Below, piece by piece: positions 16,880 through 19,072 of a stretch of 64,000 nt of DNA; positions within the stretch are counted from its first letter, which is position 1; each line of letters begins with the position of its first letter. Source of the DNA: a virus (lineage: Duplodnaviria > Caudoviricetes); IMG/VR virus record IMGVR_UViG_2873063797_000001, positions 25,659-89,658 of that record. One strand, 5' to 3'. The notes below the pieces were generated by a model. It worked only from the letters and a program-made list of their open reading frames with translations. It ran no database searches and was not told the origin of the DNA. The position numbers and the translations under genes were made by a program.

Positions 16880-18007
16880 TCAGTGGGCGGTGTCGGCAGT
16901 CTCGTCGACCAGGCCCCGGGCCAGCTCTTGCAACCGCTGCGGAGCGCGGTCCCGGGCCATCCTGTTGATGATCTCCACCAGTTCGAAGAACAGGTCCTCG
17001 TCGGGCATCTTCGCCCCGACGAGCATGGCGACCGCGCCGGGCTTGTCCCACTCGATCGGCCGCGGGGACCGGGCCTCGGCGGGCGTGGACCGCGGTTCGG
17101 GGATCACCTCCGTCGCGGGCGGTCGGACGGAAGTCGGTGCAGTTGTCTTCTCTTCTGACGGCGTCGGGTCGACGGACCCACTAGGTGGGGAAGGCGTCGG
17201 CGCCGGCGTGAGGGCAGGCGCCGGAGCCGTTTCCGGCCGGTCGGCGTATACCGCGGTATACGCGTCGGGCGTCTTCTCGGGCTCGGCGGCCGTCGTCTTC
17301 GGCGCGCGGGTGACCGGAACCGGTGTCGGTGCCTGGGGCTGCTCTTGGTCTGCCTTCCACGCGGCGTACTGCTCTGCGGCGGGCAGGGAGGCGTAGCGGC
17401 GCATGTCCCGGAACGCGGTCAGCTTCCCCTCGAGGACGAGCTGCACCATCTCATCGGAGAGCCGCAGCAGGCCGATCCGCTGGTTGAACCACGCCTTGGA
17501 CTTGCCCATGGCGCGGGCGGCCGCGGCCTGGTTCCCGTCGTGGAGTTCAAGCATGGCGCGCAGGCCGTCGGCTTCTTCGATGGGATTGAAGTTGGCGCGC
17601 TGCACGTTCTCGGACAGGACCGCGGCAAGGAACCGGATCCGGGACTCGGTGAGGTCGTGCCGCAGGAGCAGGTCGACGGTGCCGAGGCCGACCTGACGTG
17701 CTGCGCGCCAGCGTCGTTCGCCGGCGGCCATCACGTACCGGCAACTGTCGGGCAGCTGGCCGGCGTGCTCCGGGTACAGCTTGAGGTAGGCGGCCTTGTT
17801 CACGGCGACGCACGGCTGGAGCTGCCCGCCGCGCATGTCCTCGCCGAGTTCGGTGAGCTCGGTGTCGTCGAACGCCCGCCGCGGGTTGAGGGGGGTGGGG
17901 GCGACGGTGTCCGGGTGTACATGGATCAGGTCGGGGCGGCTGGCCCCGGGTACGGCCTCTACCTTGCTTCCGGCGAGCGAGGCGAGGGAGACGCGCTTGC
18001 CGGCCAT
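16880..18007 (-). CDS. parB: ParB/Spo0J family partition protein
   Basis: NPRRAF, GQLQP, GERRWRAA (CTP-binding motif), ENVQRANFNPIEEA, HTH NQAAAARAMGKSKAWFNQRI. Confidence 0.92.
   Translation of the reverse strand: MAGKRVSLASLAGSKVEAVPGASRPDLIHVHPDTVAPTPLNPRRAFDDTELTELGEDMRGGQLQPCVAVNKAAYLKLYPEHAGQLPDSCRYVMAAGERRWRAARQVGLGTVDLLLRHDLTESRIRFLAAVLSENVQRANFNPIEEADGLRAMLELHDGNQAAAARAMGKSKAWFNQRIGLLRLSDEMVQLVLEGKLTAFRDMRRYASLPAAEQYAAWKADQEQPQAPTPVPVTRAPKTTAAEPEKTPDAYTAVYADRPETAPAPALTPAPTPSPPSGSVDPTPSEEKTTAPTSVRPPATEVIPEPRSTPAEARSPRPIEWDKPGAVAMLVGAKMPDEDLFFELVEIINRMARDRAPQRLQELARGLVDETADTAH
17244..17263. promoter_or_regulatory. parS-like palindrome, copy inside parB
   Basis: Perfect 20-bp palindrome GCGTATACCGCGGTATACGC. 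Confidence 0.65.
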
Positions 18008-18669
18008 CAGCGGCGCCCTCCGTAACCGCGCTCCAGGGCGAGACGGAAGTAGTCCTCGCGGGCCCGGAGGGTGGTGCCGTTGTCGGCGTACTGGGTGACG
18101 ACCTTGCCTTCGGACGCCGCACGAGTGTGGATCTTGTAGCGGCGGATGACGGTCTTCGCCCGGGGCCAGCCCATCGCGTCGATGTAGGCGATGGTGTCCT
18201 CGAGGTCGGCTTTGCCGTCGCGGGGGTCCCAGGCGTTGATGACGACCGTGTACGGCAGGCCGCGGGGGACGATGACCCGTTCGATGGTGCGGGCGGTCGG
18301 GTCGAAGGCGAGCGGCTCCGGAGGCATGGGGACGAGGACGTCATCGGCGATGTCGAGGGCGGCGGCGAGGATGTGCTCGTTCTCGAGGCTGCCGGGGGTG
18401 TCGATGAAGATGTGCTGCCGGTCGTCGCTCTGGCCGAGGACGTCGTGGGTGACGGCGGCCAGGTTCACGGCGGTCGTGGTCTTACCGACGCCGCCCTTCT
18501 GGTTGGCGATGACGTGGATTTGCGCGCCGAGGTTTTTGAGGTCGGCGAGGCTGTCGGGGTCTTCGTGGGCGGCGGCGAAGTCGAAGGGGAGGTTGTCGCC
18601 GACGCGGTCGGCCCACCAGATGGTTGACCCTTGGGGGTCGGTGGACACGACGAGGACTGAGGACGGCAT
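18007..18669 (-). CDS. parA: ParA family ATPase with permuted N-terminal segments
   Basis: QKGGVGKTT (Walker A), VSTDPQG (A'), FIDTPG (Walker B) and conserved C-terminal half; A' precedes Walker A. Confidence 0.88.
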   Translation of the reverse strand: MPSSVLVVSTDPQGSTIWWADRVGDNLPFDFAAAHEDPDSLADLKNLGAQIHVIANQKGGVGKTTTAVNLAAVTHDVLGQSDDRQHIFIDTPGSLENEHILAAALDIADDVLVPMPPEPLAFDPTARTIERVIVPRGLPYTVVINAWDPRDGKADLEDTIAYIDAMGWPRAKTVIRRYKIHTRAASEGKVVTQYADNGTTLRAREDYFRLALERGYGGRR

Positions 18670-18793
18670 GGGTGCTCCGTTTCCGTGTGCTTCCCGGGGC
18701 GTGGCGCTCCGGTACTCGGACGGGGCATAGCTTCTCAGATGGCCCGGGTGGGGTGTGGGATTGGGCCGGTTTCGGGCGGTGCCGTCGGCCCGG

Positions 18794-18815
18794 GGCGTAT
18801 ACCGCGGTATACGCC
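18794..18815. promoter_or_regulatory. parS-like palindrome upstream of parA
   Basis: Perfect 22-bp palindrome GGCGTATACCGCGGTATACGCC. Confidence 0.7.
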
Positions 18816-18873
18816 GGGGCTGTTCGTCTGGGCCTGCGATCACGGTCTGTTCGCCGGCGCGTGGGGCGGGAGG

Positions 18874-18889
18874 GTATACCGCGGTATAC
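18874..18889. promoter_or_regulatory. parS-like palindrome upstream of parA
   Basis: Perfect 16-bp palindrome GTATACCGCGGTATAC. Confidence 0.7.
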
Positions 18890-18907
18890 GCGCAGAGGGC
18901 TCTCCAA

Positions 18908-19072
18908 TCAGTTCAGTGGTTCGTCCTCGTCGTCCTCGAGGAGTTCGTCGGCGTAGGGCTGCCCGTCCTGGTAGGCGGCTTCACGGAACAGGGCGCGGTG
19001 GTCGCGGGTGAGCGGGGGCCGCGGGTAGGTGATGCGCGGCTTGGCGGCCCGGACGGGGGTGGGGGCGGTCAT
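18908..19072 (-). CDS. small hypothetical protein
   Basis: 54-aa ORF coupled to upstream stop; acidic tail. Confidence 0.55.
   Translation of the reverse strand: MTAPTPVRAAKPRITYPRPPLTRDHRALFREAAYQDGQPYADELLEDDEDEPLN

Follow-up and report, generated by a model that had tools for sequence, protein, structure and literature searches.

A ParA homolog with a relocated P-loop block in a family of actinobacterial plasmids and phage-plasmids

The parAB Locus and Its Motifs

The window analyzed here is a stretch of 64,000 nucleotides from a genome made of two contigs, the smaller of which carries the window and is a plasmid of at least 89.7 kb. On its minus strand lies a parA gene followed by parB (table 1). 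Translation places Met1 of ParA at 18669-18667, and the alignment of homologs shows this start methionine to be conserved. The encoded protein can be divided into three blocks, A, B, and C, which occur in the chain order B-A-C. Block B contains the A′ motif VLVVSTDPQG, with D11 as the catalytic aspartate; block A contains the deviant Walker A motif NQKGGVGKTT (K58-G-G-V-G-K63-T64, in which K58 is the signature lysine); and block C opens, from residue 84 onward, with the Walker B motif HIFIDTPG, whose aspartate is D90.

Table 1. Features of the parAB locus and their positions in the window
Feature	Position	Strand	Evidence
parB, 375 aa, ParB_N and HTH_ParB domains	16880..18007	-	ORF list and Pfam
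Palindrome GTATACCGCGGTATAC, copy 3, inside parB	17246..17261	.	
parA CDS, 220 aa plus stop, chain order B-A-C	18007..18669	-	ORF and translation
Block C, residues 84-220: Walker B strand IFID90TPG and remaining ParA fold	18010..18420	-	
Block A, residues 49-83, 35 aa: strand 1, deviant Walker A P-loop, helix 1	18421..18525	-	
Block B, residues 2-48, 47 aa: Walker A′ strand, helix, short strand LPFDF, helix	18526..18666	-	
GGAG ribosome-binding site, 5 nt 5′ of the ATG	18675..18678	-	Read off the sequence
parA transcript 5′ end, ~42 nt upstream of the ATG	18711..18712	-	Stranded RNA-seq
Palindrome GTATACCGCGGTATAC, copy 1, perfect 16 bp, upstream of parA	18797..18812	.	
Palindrome GTATACCGCGGTATAC, copy 2, upstream of parA	18874..18889	.	

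In canonical ParA/MinD ATPases, the Walker A motif comes first, followed by A′ and then by Walker B. The plasmid protein satisfies the motif criteria of this class, namely a deviant Walker A of the form KGGxxGK[ST] with its signature lysine, an A′ motif in which a hydrophobic strand leads to the catalytic Asp and DPQ, and a Walker B strand of the form hhhhD. It fails the criterion of linear order, as its chain runs A′, Walker A, Walker B. It also fails the criterion met by the circularly permuted GTPases (termini joined and the chain cut elsewhere), because B-A-C is no cyclic rotation of A-B-C. The homology of the protein to ParA/MinD is not in doubt; its chain topology is unlike that of every described member.

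The stop codon of parA and the ATG of parB overlap as TGATG (18005-18009), which implies that the two genes are translationally coupled. The N-terminus of ParB, MAGKRVSLASL, resembles the N-terminal peptides by which other ParBs activate ParA; the protein also contains a GERRWRA box. Stranded RNA-seq shows that parA is transcribed, with a fall in read depth from ~90 to ~4 at 18711/18712, where 28 molecules end; a simple consensus scan for promoters and terminators detected neither a sigma-70-like promoter upstream of parA nor a terminator. The palindrome GTATACCGCGGTATAC occurs in three exact copies in the window, compared with 0 expected, two of them at a distance of 86-178 nt 5′ of the start of the parA transcript. 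We regard these palindromes as candidate parS sites, for which there are no ParB-binding data. With this reservation, the criterion of a ParABS system is satisfied (an adjacent ParB with ParB_N and HTH domains, and centromere repeats nearby); that of a type Ib (ParF-ParG) system, which pairs a small ParA with a small ribbon-helix-helix partner, is failed, as the partner here is a large ParB_N/HTH protein.

Evidence for the Permuted Order and Its Distribution

Three kinds of sequence comparison bear on the order of the blocks. The Pfam models AAA_31 (E 3e-10) and CbiA (E 2e-8) match only residues 51-73 of ParA, which they place at model positions 3-25, the N-terminus of the family. A phmmer comparison with the ParA structure 3CWQ gives three pieces in swapped order (query 52-73 on 3-24, 4-30 on 30-54, and 84-200 on 68-182). 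When the B-A-C family was aligned with its canonical near relatives by hhalign, query 2-220 matched target 38-220 over 183 columns (E 4e-110), with block A as an insertion within this alignment of B and C; block B aligned to positions 38-80 of the canonical relatives, contiguous with block C, and a second alignment put block A on the canonical N-terminus (query 49-89 on target 3-43, E 2e-20). As judged from these alignments, the difference between the two forms is a clean cut-and-paste of a unit of ~35 aa, comprising a strand, the P-loop, and a helix, and the swapped order is inherited and far beyond chance.

A search of 5.8 billion proteins returned at least 120 matches that are 64-98% identical to the plasmid ParA; the matches listed span 95-100% of the query, with the exception of two shorter partial records at 75-76%. 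All homolog alignments inspected have the same block order. The named sources are Streptomyces, Kitasatospora, Actinomadura, Actinoallomurus, Actinocorallia, Embleya, and Yinghuangia, and many of the homolog contigs measure 85-97 kb. DNA searches found the locus on plasmids of 86-94 kb, including pSLE1, and on the plasmid-phage pZL12, and the annotated ParAs of both pZL12 (pZL12.17c) and pSLE1 have the B-A-C order. Classification of 358 fetched relatives by block HMMs gave 133 B-A-C, 164 canonical, and 8 B-C-A proteins, the remainder being fragments; a full-length filter left 131, 153, and 8, respectively. The closest canonical relatives are 57-60% identical over the matched stretches. A full-length B-A-C match in one piece was present in 31 of the 401 genomes sampled from the same family; two of these 31 genomic copies have an internal in-frame TGA (G245:C30:83179-83832 and G272:C43:30834-31487) and may be decaying genes. 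A second, divergent B-A-C protein, P0137 (234 aa, ~50% identical), is represented by a single Logan record.

The first-pass annotation of this DNA had proposed that the A′ and Walker A segments of ParA are swapped. Its coordinates and its block lengths of 47 and 35 aa are exact to the base when checked by translation, and the swap itself is borne out by the Pfam, phmmer, and hhalign comparisons. The same annotation had allowed that the protein might be unique to a single isolate and suggested looking for homologs of the same order. At least 131 were found, in many assemblies including finished plasmids, and the order is therefore not peculiar to this isolate.

In a full HMMER scan of 1.84 billion representatives, the match to most near relatives was broken into three stretches, the mark of the canonical order. 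In P0123, P0125, and P0143, block A was found instead at the extreme C-terminus, after a linker of 9-12 residues, with the chain ending directly after it. Five further proteins (P0214, P0272, P0273, P0276, and P0284) bring the total of B-C-A proteins to eight; they are 30-65% mutually identical, come from three sources, and have invariant catalytic residues. Unlike B-A-C, they fit the criterion of a circular permutation. These close relatives with a C-terminal P-loop block had been missed in the first-pass annotation. An AlphaFold2 model of P0123, built with only eight sequences, has a pLDDT of 89.1 and a pTM of 0.88, and its blocks B and C superpose on ParF 28-206 (Z 18.0, rmsd 2.6 over 174 residues). 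The B-C-A forms rest on metagenome and Logan protein records only: scans of viral sequences (IMG/VR, with P0143 and P0123), of metagenomes (with P0123), and of genome contigs (with P0125) found canonical or B-A-C loci and no B-C-A locus, and a B-C-A profile run over 401 genomes of the class matched none of them at full length. PLSDB tblastn matches of P0123 that seemed to reach the C-terminal block (H29 and H31) proved canonical once translated. At the level of available sequences, and for B-C-A from protein records alone, this ParA clade holds three chain orders, A-B-C, B-A-C, and B-C-A.

Phylogenies were inferred from alignments in which every sequence had been re-ordered to A-B-C. Canonical relatives surround the main B-A-C group, which is recovered as one clade (SH-aLRT 95). 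In quick trees, P0137 fell outside this clade and the B-C-A forms were scattered over four places. We rejected this scatter as a sign of repeated origins of B-C-A, as approximately unbiased (AU) tests on 47 rows under LG+G4 do not exclude one clade, whether it is imposed on the B-A-C forms (p 0.96), on the B-C-A forms (p 0.56), or on the two combined (p 0.65). B-A-C would arise most simply if the 5′ part of the gene were duplicated in tandem, giving A-B-A-B-C, and the first A and the second B were then lost; B-C-A could have arisen by classical gene duplication and fusion. The duplication-plus-deletion origin of B-A-C remains an inference, and no protein with two P-loop blocks, as expected of a duplication intermediate, was found among the 358 relatives.

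Predicted Fold, Selection, and Alternative Explanations

The AlphaFold2 model of the plasmid ParA, built with 52 homologs, has a pLDDT of 93.1 and a pTM of 0.91, with the first 48 residues at 88-91, and it has the secondary-structure elements of a small ParA, arranged in the swapped order. The top Foldseek matches are ParF, 3CWQ, and Soj. By VIA-align, model residues 49-220 superpose on residues 1-206 of ParF (4dzz_A; Z 18.4, rmsd 2.0 over 160 residues), and further matches are Soj (Z 16.2) and MinD (Z 15.0). The criterion of a three-layer ParA/MinD fold is satisfied by prediction only, and it is at this level that the earlier suggestion that the rewired chain can still fold is supported. Sequential structural aligners left block B unaligned because blocks A and C superpose on ParF in order; its canonical placement is inferred from the pTM, the pLDDT, and the match of blocks B and C in the model of the B-C-A relative. 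AlphaFold may also be biased toward the common ParA fold.

Conservation was assessed in 52 sequences, whose alignment columns are on average 67% identical. K58, K63, T64, D11, and D90 are invariant, as are S9, D11, P12, and Q13 in the A′ motif, D90, T91, P92, and G93 in Walker B, and the whole of N56-T65 except V61, which is nearly invariant. In pairwise comparisons with the closest B-A-C genes, dN/dS is 0.03-0.17 at dS 0.21-0.46. The B-A-C order is inherited, expressed, and under purifying selection across the whole family. The permuted ParA is the sole ParA-family match on the plasmid contig. On the basis of this conservation, the dN/dS values, the transcription, its status as the only ParA of the plasmid, and the presence of parB and the palindromes, the permuted ParA is probably functional, its ATPase and partition activities being inferred; we found no biochemical or genetic test of this ParA or of any family member in the literature.

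That the real gene is canonical and its order an artefact of assembly or sequencing had been raised as a caveat in the first-pass annotation; beyond this caveat we found nothing in its favor, and the idea deserves virtually no credit. Logan contigs from three other runs, one of DNA filed under a different organism label, one of an "other" library with a third label, and one of RNA, span positions 17900-19000 unbroken and with 0 differences. Raw stranded RNA-seq reads cover parA at a depth of 90-390 on the strand of the gene and contain no joints at 18421, 18526, or 18666, and the more than 130 homologs with this order come from independent assemblies. These three lines of evidence rule the caveat out. 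The only irregularities in the reads are loose ends at 18475/18505 and a minority of A>G at 18484. A hidden junction or editing at these positions was considered and rejected, as the reads involved stem from a canonical parA paralog on the chromosome (G000:C1:1886093-1886633). Reads of this gene cross-map onto a P-loop-coding stretch of 30 nt (18475-18505) that it shares with the plasmid gene, which accounts for both the loose ends and the false A>G minority; the consensus of the loose ends is identical to C1:1886604-1886633 in the chromosomal parA.

Two further alternatives accept the order and question what the protein does with it. In a segment-swapped dimer, block B of one chain would complete blocks A and C of its partner, and the monomer alone would not have the canonical fold. 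ParAs do act as dimers, block B remains unaligned in the sequential superposition, and the coordinates of the model were not inspected; however, AlphaFold2 packs residues 1-48 confidently within a monomer, the linkers at both new junctions are short and of the same length class as in canonical proteins, and the B-C-A relative matches ParF with blocks B and C within one chain. We consider such an exchange improbable. Still somewhat harder to defend is a pseudo-enzyme that folds without hydrolyzing ATP and is kept for some other role, such as regulating the par operon or serving as an adaptor that binds ParB or DNA. The absence of activity data, the recognition of only 23 residues by Pfam models, and the replacement by Ser9 of the first Asp of the usual DxD would all be compatible with it, but Ser or Gly occupies the same position in canonical relatives of the clade, and neither the invariance of K58, K63/T64, D11, and D90, nor the low dN/dS, nor the lack of any other ParA on the plasmid is what an inactive protein would lead one to expect. 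The proposal of a naturally permuted P-loop ATPase, made at the first pass, is thus supported by the exclusion of an artefact and by the order shared among at least 131 homologs, in the absence of enzymatic and partition data.

Proposed Mechanism and Comparison with Known Systems

We consider it highly probable that this ParA is the working partition ATPase of a pZL12-like Streptomyces phage-plasmid of ~90 kb, in which relocation of block A produced the B-A-C order by a non-circular permutation. In the ancestral step, which would have taken place within a clade of small actinobacterial plasmid ParAs, block A would have been cut from the N-terminus and re-inserted between blocks B and C. All three blocks would enter the parallel sheet from the same edge, where each begins, so that short new linkers would suffice. 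The three nucleotide-binding elements would still meet in space as they do in ParF and Soj, and the protein would be expected to dimerize as an ATP sandwich, by way of the signature Lys58, and to associate with the nucleoid. The trigger for its ATPase would be the Lys/Arg-rich N-terminus (MAGKR...) of the ParB translated along with it, when that ParB occupies the 16-bp palindromes.

A broader reading is that the strand/P-loop/helix unit of ~35 aa is a relocatable module, found at the N-terminus, in the middle, or at the C-terminus of proteins of one clade (identical at up to 60% of positions) and functional in all three positions; we lean toward it only slightly. If true, the clade would provide the ParA/MinD class with its first natural series of permutations, and with a natural experiment in favor of the view that the beta-(P-loop)-alpha element is an ancestral building block in its own right. 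ParA/MinD ATPases rank with the best-studied positioning machines of bacteria, and the order of their motifs is regarded as fixed; non-circular permutations seldom occur in nature. A large B-A-C family that is selected and expressed means that the P-loop fold can accommodate re-threading of the element that matters most to it, and the canonical, swapped, and circularly permuted ParAs constitute a ready system for the study of folding order, P-loop modularity, and the evolution of topology by duplication and deletion. There is also a practical side. Profile models, in Pfam and in genome-wide family searches alike, recognize only 23 residues of ParA, with scores of 28-41 bits, near the detection limit of standard annotation profiles, and permuted ParAs may therefore be missed, mis-scored, or called fragments in the annotation of plasmids and phage-plasmids.

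Among characterized proteins, the closest in build are small, type Ib-like ParAs such as ParF of plasmid TP228, the best structural match, and Synechocystis ParA (3CWQ), which of all solved structures matches best in sequence (E 4e-10): both, like the permuted ParA, are of ~206-220 aa, lack an N-terminal DNA-binding domain, and contain the deviant Walker A, A′, and Walker B motifs. They differ from it in order, which is Walker A-A′-Walker B in their case and A′-Walker A-Walker B in ours. TP228 differs further in the partner protein, which is ParG, a ribbon-helix-helix protein, and not a ParB_N/HTH ParB. Canonical actinobacterial plasmid ParAs of the same clade (such as P0124, P0126, and P0128, and those of Pseudonocardia and Rhodococcus plasmids) share the same three blocks with the same boundaries at up to 60% identity over the matched stretches, but have block A at the N-terminus, whereas it lies between B and C in the permuted family. 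The ParAs of pZL12 and pSLE1, phage-plasmids of 86-93 kb, belong to this family, have the B-A-C order and the parA-parB arrangement, and show no essential difference from the protein described here. Both carry the plain annotation ParA, and the pSLE1 paper (PMC4487206) makes no comment on the permutation.

Permutations that displace the P-loop are known in nature from the GTPases YlqF/RbgA and YjeQ/RsgA of the TRAFAC class, in which the P-loop (G1) is moved away from the start of the domain and the motifs follow the order G4-G5-G1-G2-G3. These are circular and belong to another class, whereas the permuted ParA results from a non-circular swap in the SIMIBI/ParA-MinD class, where only the B-C-A relatives are circular permutants. 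Of the few non-circular permutations known from structure, a natural one that keeps the three-dimensional fold has been described in the HK97-like capsid protein of Bordetella phage BPP-1 (PMC3863775); its fold is unrelated, and the permutation was recognized from structure alone, whereas permuted and unpermuted ParAs are still ~60% identical. No description of a permuted ParA or MinD was found in the literature, and in a survey of the ParA clade from 2026 only FHA domains are mentioned in connection with permutation. On this literature, the permuted order appears to be new to ParA/MinD, while natural permutation of a P-loop NTPase and non-circular permutation each have precedents.
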